Source: Escherichia phage vB-Eco-KMB26. From it: a stretch of DNA of 64,000 nt. Location of the stretch: sequence record OR539218.1; one strand, 5' to 3'. The notes below the pieces were generated by a model. The model worked only from the letters and a program-made list of their open reading frames with translations, made no database searches and was not told where the DNA came from. Both the position numbers and the translations under genes were made by a program. Shown one piece after another: positions 5,308 through 38,175 of the stretch (position 1 is its first letter; every line of letters begins with the position of its first letter).

Positions 5308-5383
5308 TGGTCGAGGCAGTAGGGATCGAACCTACGACCCAGGACTTAGAAGGTCCTTGCTCTTCCTTCTGAGCTATGCCTCG
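5308..5383 (-). tRNA. tRNA-Arg (anticodon UCU)
   Basis: 76-nt cloverleaf CGAGGCA..AGGAC-CTTCTAA-GTCCT..GTAGG-TTCGATC-CCTAC-TGCCTCG-A-CCA; encoded CCA. Confidence 0.85.
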
Positions 5384-5387
5384 TATT

Positions 5388-5462
5388 TGGCGGACGTGAT
5401 AGGATTCGAACCTATAACCAATCGCTTAACAGGCGATCGCTCTGCCATTGAGCTACACATCC
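5388..5462 (-). tRNA. tRNA-Asn (anticodon GUU)
   Basis: 75-nt cloverleaf GGATGTG..GCTC/GAGC D-stem, ATCGC-CTGTTAA-GCGAT anticodon arm, ATAGG-TTCGAAT-CCTAT T-arm, CCA encoded. Confidence 0.85.
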
Positions 5463-5466
5463 AAAT

Positions 5467-5553
5467 TGGTGGGGAGTGGTGGAGTCGAACCACCCGAGTC
5501 GCAATGACAATGAATTTACAGTCCACACCGCTACCTCTACGGGATAACTCCCC
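5467..5553 (-). tRNA. Type II tRNA with long variable arm, probably tRNA-Tyr (anticodon GUA)
   Basis: 87 nt: acceptor GGGGAGT/ACTCCCC, T-arm GGTGG-TTCGACT-CCACC, CCA encoded; best anticodon arm GTGGA-CTGTAAA-TTCAT (loop as in bacterial tRNA-Tyr) but D-arm is non-canonical. Confidence 0.55.
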
Positions 5554-5562
5554 AAATTAATT

Positions 5563-5637
5563 TGGTGGCCCTGGGTGGAATTGAACCACCATCTGGCGAT
5601 TATGAGTCGCTTGCTTGAACCTTCCAGCTACAGGGCC
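5563..5637 (-). tRNA. tRNA with CAU anticodon (Ile2 by T4 synteny, Met not excluded)
   Basis: 75 nt: GGCCCTG acceptor, anticodon loop CTCATAA, T-arm GGTGG-TTCAATT-CCACC, CCA encoded. Confidence 0.75.
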
Positions 5638-5638
5638 T

Positions 5639-5714
5639 TGGTGCTGATTGACGGAATCGAACCGCCGACCTTCTCATTACAAGTGAGTTGCTCTACCTAC
5701 TGAGCTAAATCAGC
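5639..5714 (-). tRNA. tRNA-Thr (anticodon UGU)
   Basis: 76 nt: GCTGATT-TA-GCTC..GAGC, ACTCA-CTTGTAA-TGAGA, GGCGG-TTCGATT-CCGTC, AATCAGC-A-CCA. Confidence 0.88.
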
Positions 5715-5719
5715 AAAAC

Positions 5720-5809
5720 TGGCGGAGGCGATAGGATTTGAACCTATGAGTCGCCGGAGCGACTGCCGGTTTTCAAGACCGGTGCATTAAACCACTCTGC
5801 CACGCCTCC
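5720..5809 (-). tRNA. tRNA-Ser (anticodon UGA), type II
   Basis: 90 nt: GGAGGCG acceptor, CCGGT-CTTGAAA-ACCGG anticodon arm, long variable arm, ATAGG-TTCAAAT-CCTAT, CCA encoded; 2-nt spacer to tRNA-Pro. Confidence 0.88.
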
Positions 5810-5811
5810 AG

Positions 5812-5885
5812 TCTCCGTGGCAGGATTTGAACCTACGACATTCTGCTCCCAAAGCAGACGCTCTACCAAACTGAGCTACACGGAG
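5812..5885 (-). tRNA. tRNA-Pro (anticodon UGG)
   Basis: 74 nt: CTCCGTG-TA-GCTC..GAGC, TCTGC-TTTGGGA-GCAGA, GTAGG-TTCAAAT-CCTGC, CACGGAG-A; CCA not encoded. Confidence 0.88.
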
Positions 5886-5895
5886 TAAATTAAAT

Positions 5896-5969
<74 letters not shown>

Positions 5970-5974
5970 AAATT

Positions 5975-6061
5975 TGGTGCGAGAAGTGGGACTCGAACCC
6001 ACAAGGAAATCATTCCGCAGCATTTTAAGTGCTGTGCCTTTACCAATTTGGCCATTCTCGC
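5975..6061 (-). tRNA. tRNA-Leu (anticodon UAA), type II
   Basis: 87 nt: GCGAGAA acceptor, CAGCA-CTTAAAA-TGCTG, long variable arm, GTGGG-TTCGAGT-CCCAC, CCA encoded. Confidence 0.88.
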
Positions 6062-6062
6062 G

Positions 6063-6135
6063 CTGGGAATAAAGGACTCGAACCTTTGCATCCTGGAATC
6101 AAAATCCAGTGCCTTACCAACTTGGCTAATTCCCA
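6063..6135 (-). tRNA. tRNA-Gln (anticodon UUG)
   Basis: 73 nt: TGGGAAT acceptor, CTGGA-TTTTGAT-TCCAG, T-loop GGTTCGAGTCC; 1-nt spacer to tRNA-Leu. Confidence 0.88.
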
Positions 6136-6232: not shown

Positions 6233-6520
6233 TTACCATTTATAATAATACATATTTACGATGCATTCAAGACCCAAAGGATTCTTGAAAATATCATATT
6301 CAAGAGGACCTTTTTCTGTTTCAATAAAGAAATCAAAATTTACTGTATTAAATTTACGTTCTTCCTTCACTAATTTAACTTGAGAAGATGAACGGTCAAT
6401 GTAAACCTTTTCAACTTCAAAACATGTTAAAATGCCATAATCATCAATCAAGGCTTTAGCTGCTTCTTGATCATATTTATATCCATTTTCAATGGATGAT
6501 ACTTTCGCATAAAGAATCAT
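6233..6520 (-). CDS. Hypothetical protein (95 aa)
   Basis: ORF only; between tRNA array and internal-protein genes; no recognisable motif. Confidence 0.55.
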   Translation of the reverse strand: MILYAKVSSIENGYKYDQEAAKALIDDYGILTCFEVEKVYIDRSSSQVKLVKEERKFNTVNFDFFIETEKGPLEYDIFKNPLGLECIVNMYYYKW

Positions 6521-6522
6521 TA

Positions 6523-6921
6523 TCAGCCTTCATCAACAATAGTGTGAGTATTAGCATTTACGATTTGCCACCAATCAAAGCGATTAGAATCCATCGGTTT
6601 GTTTTCATTTTCTTTGATAATGTCACGGAGTTCATCTTCAGAGAATGCTTTAGCAATTAAATCGGTATACCCACCACGGGGATAATAATTATCACCTGCA
6701 AACAAAAGGAAATTTACCTTCCCGGAAGCAACATATGCTTCCTTAGGATACTTGTTTCCTGCGTGGTCAACCACTTCAATATAACGGTAAGGAATATCGG
6801 TTCTTTCAACCCATTGCCATGCCGCCGCAGGGGAATCGAAAGCATCTACACCTAAACGATTATCTTCATCTTTAGACGGATTATTTTCGTAATCCGCATA
6901 TACATAATATTCAACGTTCAT
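6523..6921 (-). CDS. Hypothetical protein (132 aa)
   Basis: ORF tightly packed with neighbours (2-bp gap, ATGA overlap upstream); no recognisable motif. Confidence 0.6.
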   Translation of the reverse strand: MNVEYYVYADYENNPSKDEDNRLGVDAFDSPAAAWQWVERTDIPYRYIEVVDHAGNKYPKEAYVASGKVNFLLFAGDNYYPRGGYTDLIAKAFSEDELRDIIKENENKPMDSNRFDWWQIVNANTHTIVDEG

Positions 6922-7106
6922 TATTCACCTTTAGAAATTTTATCCATAACAATAGCAATTAAACCAATTAAAAATGCTACTACAAGTGAAAAAACATTTT
7001 CTGCCGTAGTCAATAATCCGCATATAAATCCAACAAACATTGAAAAACTGAAAGCGGAAGCAGAAATTGCAATAGCAACATTTCGAATTAATTCACAACG
7101 TTTCAT
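6921..7106 (-). CDS. Small hydrophobic membrane protein (61 aa, two predicted TM segments)
   Basis: ORF MKRCELIRNVAIAISASAFSFSMFVGFICGLLTTAENVFSLVVAFLIGLIAIVMD...; early promoter immediately upstream. Confidence 0.55.
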   Translation of the reverse strand: MKRCELIRNVAIAISASAFSFSMFVGFICGLLTTAENVFSLVVAFLIGLIAIVMDKISKGE

Positions 7107-7134
7107 TTTATTCTCCTCAGTAGTAGATAGGGTA

Positions 7135-7163
7135 ATAGTATCACTACCCTATCTAAAAGTAAA
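7135..7163 (-). promoter_or_regulatory. T4 early promoter embedded in a palindrome (PeSL-like)
   Basis: Reverse strand TTTACT-N17-TACTAT (plus atagta 7135-7140, agtaaa 7158-7163); -10 sits inside inverted repeat agggta..taccct. Confidence 0.55.
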
Positions 7164-7164
7164 C

Positions 7165-7398
7165 TTATTTTTTACGAAAAATTGATTTATTTTCTGCTGC
7201 CCATTTTTCAATAACTGCAGCAGGACCAGTAACAACAATTTTATCACCGTAATCTTCTGCGGCGAGTTGACCGAAATTATCTAATGCATCACGAAGAACT
7301 CCATGAGGCATTTCACCCATTTTATCTTTCTTGCCAGTGTAAATAAACTCAACTTTTACATCAGCAGTTTCAGCAATAAATTCTTGGTAAGTTTTCAT
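7165..7398 (-). CDS. ipI: Internal protein I-like head protein with capsid-targeting sequence MKTYQEFIAE
   Basis: ORF track begins MEIKM (7410); the second ATG at 7396-7398 gives the canonical IP leader MKTYQEFIAE; position between tRNAs and 57B matches T4 ipI. Confidence 0.75.
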   Translation of the reverse strand: MKTYQEFIAETADVKVEFIYTGKKDKMGEMPHGVLRDALDNFGQLAAEDYGDKIVVTGPAAVIEKWAAENKSIFRKK

Positions 7399-7432
7399 TT
7401 TGATTTCCATTTGGTTTTGTTTTGATAGGGTA

Positions 7433-7461
7433 ATAGTATCACAACTAAAACCCTATGTAAA
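7433..7461 (-). promoter_or_regulatory. T4 early promoter (PeSL-like) upstream of ipI
   Basis: Reverse strand TTTACA-N17-TACTAT (plus atagta 7433-7438, tgtaaa 7456-7461); flanked by inverted repeat ataggg..ccctat. Confidence 0.55.
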
Positions 7462-7486
7462 CAACTTTGTGAAATTATTTTAAATC
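7454..7486. repeat. 33-bp exact direct repeat, copy 1 (spans stop codon of the IP-like gene and the -35 of the ipI promoter)
   Basis: tatgtaaacaactttgtgaaattattttaaatc, identical to 7785-7817. Confidence 0.9.
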
Positions 7487-7732
7487 TTCTAATCGTTTCT
7501 TCATCTTAGAGCCATTTTTAGCAATTTCTCCTGCATCGGAGCATAATGCTAAAAGTGCTTTAACTTTAGTTTGGTCTCCTTTAAAAGATGAAGGATCGAC
7601 CGCAGCAGCAAGTTCTTTAATACGAGAGAAAAGACGCTCAGCTTCAGCTAAAGCCATTCCAAGCTTTACTTCCATACCGTGGGAAGATTCAGTAATAGTA
7701 GTTTTTGTAGCAAACTCTTTGAAAGTTTTCAT
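7475..7732 (-). CDS. Internal-protein-like protein with capsid-targeting-like leader MKTFKEF..ITE
   Basis: 85-aa ORF, ATG with AGGAAAATAAAA SD; N-terminus resembles the IP leader; ends ..EDLK like 57B (..DDLK) inside the shared 33-bp repeat. Confidence 0.6.
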   Translation of the reverse strand: MKTFKEFATKTTITESSHGMEVKLGMALAEAERLFSRIKELAAAVDPSSFKGDQTKVKALLALCSDAGEIAKNGSKMKKRLEDLK

Positions 7733-7763
7733 TTTTATTTTCCTAATTAATTTTGATGTGGTA

Positions 7764-7784
7764 ATAGTATCACTACCTCATCAG

Positions 7785-7792
<8 letters not shown>
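7764..7792 (-). promoter_or_regulatory. T4 early promoter (PeSL-like) upstream of the IP-like gene
   Basis: Reverse strand TTTACA-N17-TACTAT (plus atagta 7764-7769, tgtaaa 7787-7792); -10 within palindrome ggtaatagtatcactacc. Confidence 0.55.
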
Positions 7793-8490
<698 letters not shown>

Positions 8491-8491
<1 letters not shown>

Positions 8492-9216
8492 TATAGTACC
8501 TTTAGTGTATTTTTAATTTTAGAAAAAAGTTCTTCAAGAGAACCATCGTTTGTAATTACTAAATCGCCATCACGAATTGGCAATCCAGCTTCTGTAATAT
8601 GTGTATCATTGGATTTTTGACCAGGACGAACTACATGAATTACTGTAGCACCCATCGCCCTAGCCGCATCCATTTCATGATCTTGACGGGTATCAGGAAC
8701 GATATAATAATCATAACCTGAGTTAAATTTATCAAGATAATCTAAAGCAAATAATTTTACCCAGTACATGCGGTCGAAGTTATTAACAATCAAATCCGTA
8801 CCTAGGGCTTGCATCAGACGACGGACTGACCATTGATCTTCAATATTATTTATAACGTCAATAATCTTGTTAAATGCTACGGAATTAACTGATTCTTGTC
8901 CTTCGTCATCAAAAACAAACACACCTTTAATTGGGCTTTTACCATTAAGATAGCAAAATGCTTGTTCCATAATCGTGATTACTTCTAATTTAGTTAGATT
9001 TAAATTAGTCTCACGATCATAGTCAATTCCTTCAAACTCTTTACGAGTTAAGCAAGGATAGTCGGTATTTGCAGCAAATACTCCCCATGCATAAGCCAAT
9101 GCATCCTTAATAGGACCAGCAAGTTGGTATTTAACTGCAGAATAATTGCTCATGATAAAATCAGCAGTAGTATCTTTTCCACTACGCTTTACACCGCTTA
9201 AAAAGATTAGTTTCAT
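8491..9216 (-). CDS. 1: gp1, deoxynucleoside monophosphate kinase
   Basis: 241-aa ORF with P-loop GVKRSGKDT; T4 gene 1 position and length. Confidence 0.93.
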
Positions 9217-36272: not shown

Positions 36273-36697
36273 TGCTTCTGATCCCTGAAACTCATGAATT
36301 AGTTCTCGAGAATGTCGAAGCACTTATTCCTGAAGCACAGGGTCGCTTTGACGAATTGTCTTCTGCTTTAAATAAAGACGATATAAATACAATTGTCGAG
36401 AATATGCTTGATGATGAAACTGATTTAGCGGTTGCATTAGCTTCTATTAATGAAAATATGCCGTTAAATGAATTTATCGTTAAACATGTTTCTGCCCGTG
36501 GTGAAATTACTCGCACTAAAGATCGCAAAACCCGCGAACGTAATGCATTTCAAACTACCGGGTTGTCTAAAGCAAAACGTAGACAAATTGCTCGTAAAGC
36601 TACCAAAACGAAGATTGCCAATCCAGCAGGTCAATCTCGTGCTCAGCGTAAGCGTAAAAAAGCTCTTAAACGCCGTAAAGCATTAGGATTAAGCTAA
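36272..36697 (+). CDS. 68: gp68, prohead core protein
   Basis: 141-aa ORF with basic C-terminus; TAATG coupling on both sides. Confidence 0.88.
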
Positions 36698-37335
36698 TGA
36701 ATGAACCCCAATTACTAATTGAAACTTGGGGTCAACCTGGCGAAATTATTGATGGCGTACCAATGCTTGAATCTCATGATGGAAAAGACTTAGGTTTAAA
36801 ACCGGGTTTATACATCGAAGGAATATTCATGCAAGCGGAAGTCGTCAATAGAAATAAACGTCTTTATCCAAAACGTATATTAGAAAAAGCGGTAAAAGAC
36901 TATATTAATGAGCAAGTTTTAACTAAACAAGCTCTCGGAGAATTAAATCATCCTCCACGCGCTAATGTTGACCCGATGCAAGCCGCTATCATTATAGAAG
37001 ATATGTGGTGGAAAGGAAATGACGTATACGGACGAGCTCGTGTTATTGAAGGTGACCACGGTCCTGGAGATAAATTAGCAGCTAATATTCGTGCCGGATG
37101 GATTCCAGGAGTTTCTTCTCGTGGATTAGGTTCATTGACTGACACAAATAAAGGTTATCGTATCGTAAACGAAGGATTCAAATTAACTGTAGGTGTTGAT
37201 GCAGTATGGGGTCCAAGTGCTCCAGATGCATGGGTAACTCCTAAGGAAATTACCGAATCACAGACGGCGGAAGCCGATACAAGTGCCGATGACGCCTATA
37301 TGGCTCTCGCAGAGGCCATGAAAAAAGCGTTATAA
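36697..37335 (+). CDS. 21: gp21, prohead core scaffold protease
   Basis: 212-aa ORF; T4 synteny 68-21-22. Confidence 0.93.
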   Translation: MNEPQLLIETWGQPGEIIDGVPMLESHDGKDLGLKPGLYIEGIFMQAEVVNRNKRLYPKRILEKAVKDYINEQVLTKQALGELNHPPRANVDPMQAAIIIEDMWWKGNDVYGRARVIEGDHGPGDKLAANIRAGWIPGVSSRGLGSLTDTNKGYRIVNEGFKLTVGVDAVWGPSAPDAWVTPKEITESQTAEADTSADDAYMALAEAMKKAL

Positions 37336-37365: not shown

Positions 37366-38175
37366 ATGCTTAAAGAACAACTGATTGCTGAAGCGCAAAA
37401 AATTGATGCTTCCGTTGCTCTTGATAGTATTTTCGAATCAGTTAATATTTCTCCGGAAGCAAAAGAAACTTTCGGCACTGTATTCGAAGCTACCGTCAAG
37501 CAGCACGCCGTTAAATTAGCTGAATCTCATATCGCTAAAATTGCTGAAAAAGCAGAAGAAGAAGTAGAAAAAAATAAAGAAGAAGCAGAAGAAAAAGCTG
37601 AGAAGAAAATCGCTGAGCAAGCTTCTAAATTCCTTGACCATCTTGCAAAAGAATGGCTCACTGAAAATAAATTAGCAGTAGATAAAGGTATCAAAGCCGA
37701 ACTGTTTGAATCCATGCTTGGTGGATTGAAAGAGCTCTTCGTTGAACACAACGTTGTTGTTCCAGAAGAATCAGTTGATGTTGTAGCTGAAATGGAAGAA
37801 GAACTGCAAGAACATAAAGAAGAATCAGCTCGTCTGTTCGAAGAACTCAATAAGCGTGACGCATATATCAATTATGTGCAGCGTGAAGTGGCATTGAGCG
37901 AAAGTACTAAAGATCTGACTGAGTCTCAAAAAGAAAAAGTCTCTGCTCTGGTCGAAGGTATGGATTATTCAGATGCATTCTCAAGTAAATTGAGTGCAAT
38001 CGTAGAAATGGTGAAGAAATCTAATAAAGATGAAAGCACTATTACTGAGAGTATAAATACTCCTGATACTGAAGCAGCCGGACTGAATTTCGTCACTGAA
38101 GCTGTAGAAGATAAATCTGCACAAGGTGCAGAAGATATTGTAAGTGTATATGCGAAAGTCGCATCTCGTTTCTAA
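37366..38175 (+). CDS. 22: gp22, major prohead scaffolding core protein
   Basis: 269-aa helical E/K-rich ORF; T4 synteny. Confidence 0.93.
   Translation: MLKEQLIAEAQKIDASVALDSIFESVNISPEAKETFGTVFEATVKQHAVKLAESHIAKIAEKAEEEVEKNKEEAEEKAEKKIAEQASKFLDHLAKEWLTENKLAVDKGIKAELFESMLGGLKELFVEHNVVVPEESVDVVAEMEEELQEHKEESARLFEELNKRDAYINYVQREVALSESTKDLTESQKEKVSALVEGMDYSDAFSSKLSAIVEMVKKSNKDESTITESINTPDTEAAGLNFVTEAVEDKSAQGAEDIVSVYAKVASRF
38052..38059 (+). promoter_or_regulatory. Candidate late promoter for gene 23, inside the 3' end of gene 22
   Basis: tataaata ~135 bp upstream of the gene 23 ATG; no box in the short 22-23 intergenic gap. Confidence 0.4.

Follow-up and report, generated by a model that had tools for sequence, protein, structure and literature searches.

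Which gene occupies the position directly after 57B/acb1 in this phage, and what does its product do? The DNA analyzed here (the window, 64,000 nucleotides of Escherichia phage vB-Eco-KMB26, OR539218.1) is part of a T4-like (Tequatrovirus) genome, and an ORF of the following extent lies at that position.

7475..7732, minus strand, ip5 coding sequence, 85 codons and a TAA stop at 7475-7477

Identification of the ORF as ip5

The ORF list gives this frame an ATG start and a product of 85 aa whose first residues are MKTFKEFATKTTITESSHG. Along its entire length, the product matched PHROG 3499 ('internal head protein', E 1.2e-49), and a tblastn search with it gave matches in 496 phage records, so the ORF lies far beyond chance. 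Its amino acid sequence is 100% identical to the Ip5 proteins of RB15 and RB32 and 98.8% identical to the copy in T2. This full-length similarity to named Ip5 proteins, together with the PHROG 3499 match, places the product in the Ip5 family. 'Internal head protein' is also the annotation of ip5 in many genomes, and the note in the RB32 record reads 'similar to RB15 T6 T2 RB70 Ip5, RB69ORF127c, replaces ipI'. Based on this note and on the promoter and leader of ipI that ip5 shares, ip5 is the positional replacement of ipI. From the sequence matches, the flagged ORF is practically certain to be ip5, a T-even internal protein (IP) gene.

The gene is already known: ip5 was named in 1994 by Repoila et al., as cited in later papers (PMC3012670, PMC2839356, PMC12373910), and databases label its product internal head protein. 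As a discovery, the identification is minor, because the work of 1994 already covered the gene, the leader, the promoter cassettes and the hypothesis on host range. The sequence-only reading had recognized an IP gene with a capsid-targeting leader, in agreement with the PHROG 3499 match and the identity to RB15 and RB32 Ip5, but the gene that it put forward as a candidate already had a name. Its own refuting condition, clear orthology to a characterised IP, applies by half: Ip5 is an ortholog of an internal protein that is named but not functionally characterised.

Searches for more distant relatives were less productive. Neither Pfam nor NCBIfam gave a match to Ip5 above noise, and the best hit of a PDB sequence search reached only E about 1. 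A word-indexed protein search returned 5 close relatives, and when 1.84 billion cluster representatives were searched exhaustively, 3 Ip5-family clusters were obtained, none of them outside Tevenvirinae, so distant homologues that would give a functional hint are absent.

Organization of the IP locus

7806..8264, minus strand, 57B/acb1, anti-CBASS phosphodiesterase family (Pfam PF23474 Acb1, E 6.1e-60), positioned as T4 57B
7165..7410, minus strand, ip6 (ipVI) (PHROG 8111, E 1.5e-52, aligned from residue 5)
6921..7106, minus strand, trna.4 homologue of 61 aa (PHROG 1692, E 6e-35), in the same position as T4 trna.4

The gene order on the minus strand is gene 1 (dNMP kinase), 57A, 57B, ip5, ip6 (81/77 aa), trna.4, trna.3, trna.2 and ten clustered tRNA genes. 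The IP locus has 57B as its conserved left border and trna.4 as its conserved right border; ip5 lies between the two, at one of the loci (57B-trna.4 or e-denV) that characterize the IP class. The neighbor at 7165..7410 was considered as T4 ipI and rejected, since its PHROG 8111 match and its names in the records of fFiEco06, JK08, VR7 and PST (ip6 or ipVI) identify it as ip6/ipVI. The sequence-only reading, which had placed the ORF between ipI and 57B/acb1, was thus right about the acb1 side and wrong about the other neighbor.

The ip6 gene has two in-frame ATGs (MEIKMKTYQEFIAE...), and the records are split between products of 81 and 77 aa; DalCa annotates the 77-aa form. Judging from the sequence, the start is likely to be the second ATG at 7398, giving MKTYQEFIAE/T (the slash marks the cleavage position, here and below), because that codon is where the PHROG profile starts to align and where the canonical leader starts. 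Ip8 of RB15 shows the METKMKTYQ... pattern as ip6 does.

The remaining genes on this side were also inspected. The trna.4 homologue is very hydrophobic, is probably membrane-embedded and has its own IP-type promoter/stem-loop cassette. At 6233-6921 (minus strand) lie homologues of trna.2 (95 aa) and trna.3 (132 aa), which are T-even-conserved (PHROGs 2023 and 1411) and have no Pfam family. The tRNA cluster at 5308-6135 (minus strand) comprises Arg, Asn, Tyr, Met (CAT anticodon), Thr, Ser, Pro, Gly, Leu and Gln genes, ten in the window compared with eight in T4. The Asn and Tyr genes occupy the place of the T4 segB homing endonuclease gene, and the tRNA with the CAT anticodon is annotated as tRNA-Ile in T4 and Paracelsus.

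Promoter, stem-loop and repeated cassettes

7764..7793, minus strand, early promoter, GTTTACA (-35), 17 nt, TG-n-TACTAT (-10), sigma-70/T4-early type, equivalent to T4 PE2
7754..7783, minus strand, stem-loop/inverted repeat over the -10 hexamer
7739..7744, minus strand, Shine-Dalgarno sequence AGGAAA, 6 nt before the ATG
7751..7821, 71-nt cassette, copy 1, upstream of ip5, starting in the last four 57B codons
7420..7490, 71-nt cassette, copy 2, downstream of ip5, starting in the last four ip5 codons
7122..7192, 71-nt cassette, copy 3, upstream of trna.4
8847..8854, minus strand, nearest upstream late-promoter motif TATAAATA, inside gene 1

The early promoter of ip5 was detected with a consensus scan, which by itself was not above chance (6 sites compared with 5.2 expected). 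What makes the promoter credible nevertheless is its location in a 71-nt cassette that is present three times. It is also nearly base-identical to PE2, annotated upstream of T4 ipI (X03016), and the Shine-Dalgarno sequence is identical to that upstream of T4 ipI. The stem-loop over the -10 hexamer had an RNA folding energy of -13.3 kcal/mol (z -2.2), and those of the two sister cassettes had z values of -3.7 and -4.3; a potential stem-loop is annotated at the equivalent place in X03016.

All three cassettes contain GTTTACA, 17 nt and TACTAT with a stem-loop overlapping the -10 element. Copy 2, with 86% identity to copy 1, holds the promoter of ip6 (7461..7433) together with a stem-loop, and copy 3 is more diverged (61% identity), with a perfect stem of 10 bp or more. 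Both flanks of ip5 therefore bear the early-promoter/inverted-repeat element of about 70 bp that is typical of IP-class genes. The coding sequences of 57B/acb1 and ip5 end on the same GAT TTA AAA TAA (D-L-K-stop), at 7806-7821 and 7475-7490, respectively. Since the cassette starts inside the coding sequence with these shared codons, it may be the recombination cassette, and not the function of the protein, that fixes the C-terminal residues of Ip5.

PE1, in T4 a single promoter upstream of trna.4, appeared to be split when the window at 7107-7196 and 7399-7494 was compared with positions 2185-2275 of the T4 record: the ip6 cassette corresponds to its 5' half and the trna.4 cassette to its 3' half. 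In the alignment, this looks like the footprint of an ip6 insertion by recombination in the conserved GTGATACTATTACCCTATC core.

A motif search for late promoters found none directly upstream of ip5, with no TATAAATA on the coding strand between 6481 and 8847. The nearest motif upstream lies inside gene 1, where X03016 annotates the late promoter PL1 of T4. By this analogy, a gene 1 late promoter is a possible source of late read-through for 57A-57B-ip5-ip6.

Leader and predicted cleavage site

7688..7732, minus strand, leader/capsid-targeting propeptide, residues 1-15 (MKTFKEFATKTTITE), ending in the predicted gp21 site I-T-E15/S16
36697..37335, plus strand, gp21 prohead protease (Pfam Peptidase_S77, E 1.5e-111)
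37366..38175, plus strand, gp22 scaffolding core protein (Pfam T4_CASP, E 5.2e-90)

The internal proteins of T4 all enter the core via a targeting sequence, and gp21 removes the propeptides after Glu (PMC5694885, which also describes the part of the core in targeting leader-bearing proteins). The leader of Ip5, MKTFKEFATKTTITE, has the form MKT[YF]xEF... of the IP class, and a start of the type MKT[YF]x.F occurs in just two ORFs of the 64-kb window, namely ip5 and its neighbor ip6. The leader of T4 IPI is MKTFKEFTSTTTPVSTITE, cut before A and continuing ATLTSEV..., and the Ip5 leader aligns with it (MKTFKEF..TITE/A) at both the protein and DNA levels. In BLASTP, residues 1-22 of Ip5 aligned with IPI and nothing further did.

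The leader ends in I-T-E15/S16, that is, in the [LI]-x-E plus small residue expected of a gp21 site in the IP class. Despite identities of 38-54%, every Ip5 homologue keeps [LI]-x-E among its first 15 residues, in the forms ITE/S, LNE/A, LAE/S and LSE/A. The mature form of IPI contains 76 of 95 residues, hence the cut lies after ..ITE19 (PMC3012670), and by analogy Ip5 should be cut after I-T-E15. The gp21 encoded in this window is the enzyme expected to trim the Ip5 leader. GenBank X03016 annotates a mature IpI of 80 residues (cut after residue 15), in contrast to the 76-residue IPI* of the structural literature; the latter, cut after ..ITE19, suits the Glu-specific gp21 motif. With respect to Ip5 itself, the 85-aa ORF, its IP-like leader with an I-x-E motif and its own early promoter, all noted in the sequence-only reading, were confirmed by the ORF list, the alignment with the IPI leader ending in I-T-E, and the PE2-like promoter within the 71-nt repeat.

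At the DNA level, T4 ipI and ip5 are nearly base-identical over the end of 57B, the PE2 promoter, the stem-loop, the Shine-Dalgarno sequence, the ATG and the start of the leader. In the alignment with X03016, the similarity stops directly behind ACT/ACC GAA (..T-E), the last codons of the leader. Judged from this alignment, ip5 is an allelic swap in which the mature-coding part of ipI is exchanged and the control region and leader are kept, because the near-identity extends to the leader end and the divergence follows directly. Orthology of ip5 to T4 ipI was rejected, as just the leader aligns; Ip5 shows no detectable homology to the mature domain of IPI, and its model lacks the 76-residue alpha/beta fold. 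Consistently, tblastn searches with T4 IPI and with Ip5 returned separate gene sets at different loci.

Mature protein and predicted fold

7478..7687, minus strand, predicted mature Ip5*, residues 16-85, small helical bundle (composition and AlphaFold2)

According to its composition, the predicted Ip5* has 70 aa, 7.5 kDa, a pI of 9.2 and a net charge of +2.5, compared with 76 aa, a pI of 9.0 and a charge of +2.0 for IPI*. The structure prediction that the sequence-only reading had proposed was performed with AlphaFold2 on a six-sequence alignment. The model had a mean pLDDT of 84, with values above 90 across residues 21-80 and about 50 in the leader, and showed helices at residues 15-44, 54-63 and 67-84, so that the leader is predicted to be disordered and the remainder to form a confident helical bundle. 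Across genera, 23-36 positions of the folded domain are invariant at 38-54% identity.

The confident model did not lead to an informative structural neighbor. Foldseek with the model gave no match in PDB, and its sole match in BFVD was the own family (VR26 'internal head protein'). No similarity of Ip5* to IPI* or to any known inhibitor was detected by BLASTP, PDB sequence search or Foldseek.

Distribution of Ip5 among phages

Dozens of Escherichia phages, among them DalCa, Elenatom and Paracelsus, share the 1.2 kb around ip5 at 99.4-99.6% identity, and tblastn found Ip5 at an identity of at least 80% in about 270 records. A diverged form of 93-94 aa, with 38-54% identity, occurs in Gaprivervirus and Mosigvirus. 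There, the homologue sits between the lysozyme gene e and denV, which is the other IP locus; this placement was observed in VR25 and O157 typing phage 3. In T4, the e-denV locus is the site of ipIII and ipII. Two tblastn searches showed that an IPI homologue and an Ip5 homologue are both present in the Mosigviruses Phaginator, JK45 and pEK20, so the two proteins are not simply redundant; such co-occurrence is as expected for different, non-redundant targets.

Proposed function of Ip5

We propose that transcription of ip5 would start at its own early promoter, as indicated by the sequence identity to T4 PE2, and that late transcription would probably arise by read-through from the gene 1 late promoter. 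The 15-residue leader, near-identical to that of IPI, would steer Ip5 into the gp22 prohead core, and gp21 would cut after I-T-E15, freeing the 70-residue, mildly basic helical-bundle Ip5*, which would be kept with the head DNA. Ip5* would then be injected with the DNA and bind a host defence protein one to one before phage gene expression. From the analogy with Ip1, Ip2 and Ip3, its most likely target would be a type IV GmrSD-family nuclease attacking glycosylated hmC DNA.

An injected anti-defence role is the standing hypothesis for the IP gene class (Repoila 1994, as cited in PMC3012670, PMC2839356 and PMC12373910). IPI* inhibits GmrS/GmrD, the type IV restriction enzyme found in E. coli CT596 (PMC3012670), and Ip2 and Ip3 block GmrSD-ECOR21 and GmrSD-ECOR17, respectively, which are highly diverged enzymes (PMC12373910, Silas et al. 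2025). Each of Ip1, Ip2 and Ip3 inhibits a distinct GmrSD without cross-protection, indicating strict one-to-one specificity (PMC12373910). As IPI*, Ip2 and Ip3 each block a GmrSD enzyme, an injected stoichiometric nuclease inhibitor is considered the likeliest role of Ip5. By analogy with these proteins, Ip5 is very likely to be packaged, processed and injected, and it is probably, though less securely, an anti-defence inhibitor of whatever kind. A GmrSD-type or other modification-dependent nuclease as its target is plausible and slightly short of evenly balanced. The whole reading, in which the ip5 cassette in the ipI slot encodes an injected inhibitor of a modification-dependent nuclease, is held tentatively, as close to an even balance without reaching it.

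The choice of target is complicated by published assays. Representatives of 15 enterobacterial GmrSD groups were challenged with ip4-10, and no reproducible inhibition was observed (PMC12373910); 'ip5' in that screen is assumed to be the Ip5 family described here. This negative result is weak evidence, because the GmrSD family is vastly diverse, just 8 of the tested systems acted on T-even phages, and expression in the assays was non-native (PMC12373910). T2 and T6 are restricted by all three characterised enzymes, GmrSD-CT596, GmrSD-ECOR21 and GmrSD-ECOR17 (PMC12373910). Both phages are listed as Ip5 carriers in the RB32 record note, and the T2 copy was found directly by tblastn, so Ip5 does not block these three GmrSDs at its natural dose. 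The negative screen and the restriction of T2 together suggest that the target of Ip5, if any, may lie outside the GmrSD groups sampled. The injected inhibitor foreseen in the sequence-only reading is thus in line with the hypothesis standing in the literature, but 'strong candidate' was an overstatement in view of the screen and of a literature search in which no source reached demonstrated packaging of Ip5.

It is possible, although on the unlikely side, that Ip5* inhibits a host defence outside the GmrSD groups tested, either a new nuclease subtype or a mechanistically different system. If this is true, the helical bundle of Ip5* would be a new inhibitor fold, and ipI and ip5 would be functional alleles switching which host immune system the phage pre-empts.

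Unlikely, in our estimation, is a packaged and injected Ip5 with a target outside GmrSD altogether, such as a modified-DNA sensor, a DNA glycosylase, abortive infection or a host nuclease. The negative screen is compatible with such a target, as are the all-helical predicted fold, unlike that of IPI*, and the position of ip5 beside acb1, whose product inhibits a defence other than restriction. Homologues in Mosigvirus point in the same direction, as this is the genus of RB69, whose DNA contains arabinosyl-hmC and not glucosyl-hmC (PMC6024577). However, all three internal proteins with known targets act on GmrSD enzymes, and the diversity of that family and the expression conditions of the screen reduce the weight of its negative outcome.

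More doubtful still is a packaged Ip5 with no specific host target, that is, a dispensable, mildly basic filler or DNA-associated core part subject to neutral cassette turnover. Packaged T4 DNA embeds about 1000 internal protein molecules (PMC3012670), and the basic character of the predicted mature protein, the lack of a target in the ip4-10 screen and the tiny, Tevenvirinae-restricted family would fit this explanation. Nevertheless, a DNA counter-ion would be expected to carry a larger net charge, and a confident fold with 23-36 invariant positions across genera argues for a specific interaction surface. Ip2 and Ip3 were also once deemed functionless and proved to be specific inhibitors (PMC12373910).

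It is very improbable that Ip5 is an unpackaged early cytoplasmic protein whose IP-like N-terminus was left over when it recombined into the promoter-leader cassette of ipI. In favor of this, the promoter directly upstream is an early one only, the recombination breakpoint falls within the leader, and the sources reached in the literature search, which did not include the 1994 paper, contained no proteomic report of Ip5 in virions, but T4 ipI has the same layout (PE2 only, with PL1 far upstream in gene 1) and a classically packaged product, and the leader with [LI]-x-E is kept in distant homologues at the other locus behind a different upstream gene, which is not expected of a relic.

About 270 sequenced Tequatrovirus genomes, T2 included, have Ip5 instead of IPI. 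Finding the target would add a further matched inhibitor-defence pair to those known from the arms race of T-even phages with modified-DNA-sensing restriction, and would help to predict the host range of therapeutic T4-like phages.

Comparison with known systems

The slot of ip5 in this phage is the slot of ipI in T4 (57B to trna.4). The two mature products, IPI* and the predicted Ip5*, are alike in size and charge, whereas IPI* folds into two beta sheets flanked by helices (PMC3012670) and Ip5* is predicted to be all-helical. RB15 and RB32 carry the same ip5 in the same position directly after 57B, with the same flanking promoter/stem-loop cassettes. The locus differs downstream of it: ip5-ip6 in this phage, ip5-ip9-ip7-ip8 in RB15 and ip5-ip9-ip7 in RB32. 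Ip2 and Ip3 of T4 belong to the same class as Ip5, being leader-bearing, non-essential head-internal proteins of polymorphic IP loci, and have no sequence relationship to it.

More than 30 IP variants are known (PMC2839356, PMC3012670, PMC12373910). As cited in the same papers, Repoila et al. (1994) described two highly variable IP loci, where PeSL-like elements may drive cassette shuffling. PeSLs (promoter-early stem-loops) were described in RB49 and phi1 and proposed as the substrate of cassette shuffling (PMC2839356, Arbiol et al. 2010). Like the PeSL cassettes, the flanks of ip5 and ip6, which are repeats of about 70 nt, combine an early promoter with a stem-loop. The two are analogues rather than homologues; the T-even IP elements are based on T4 early promoters and have weaker, AT-rich stems (PMC2839356).
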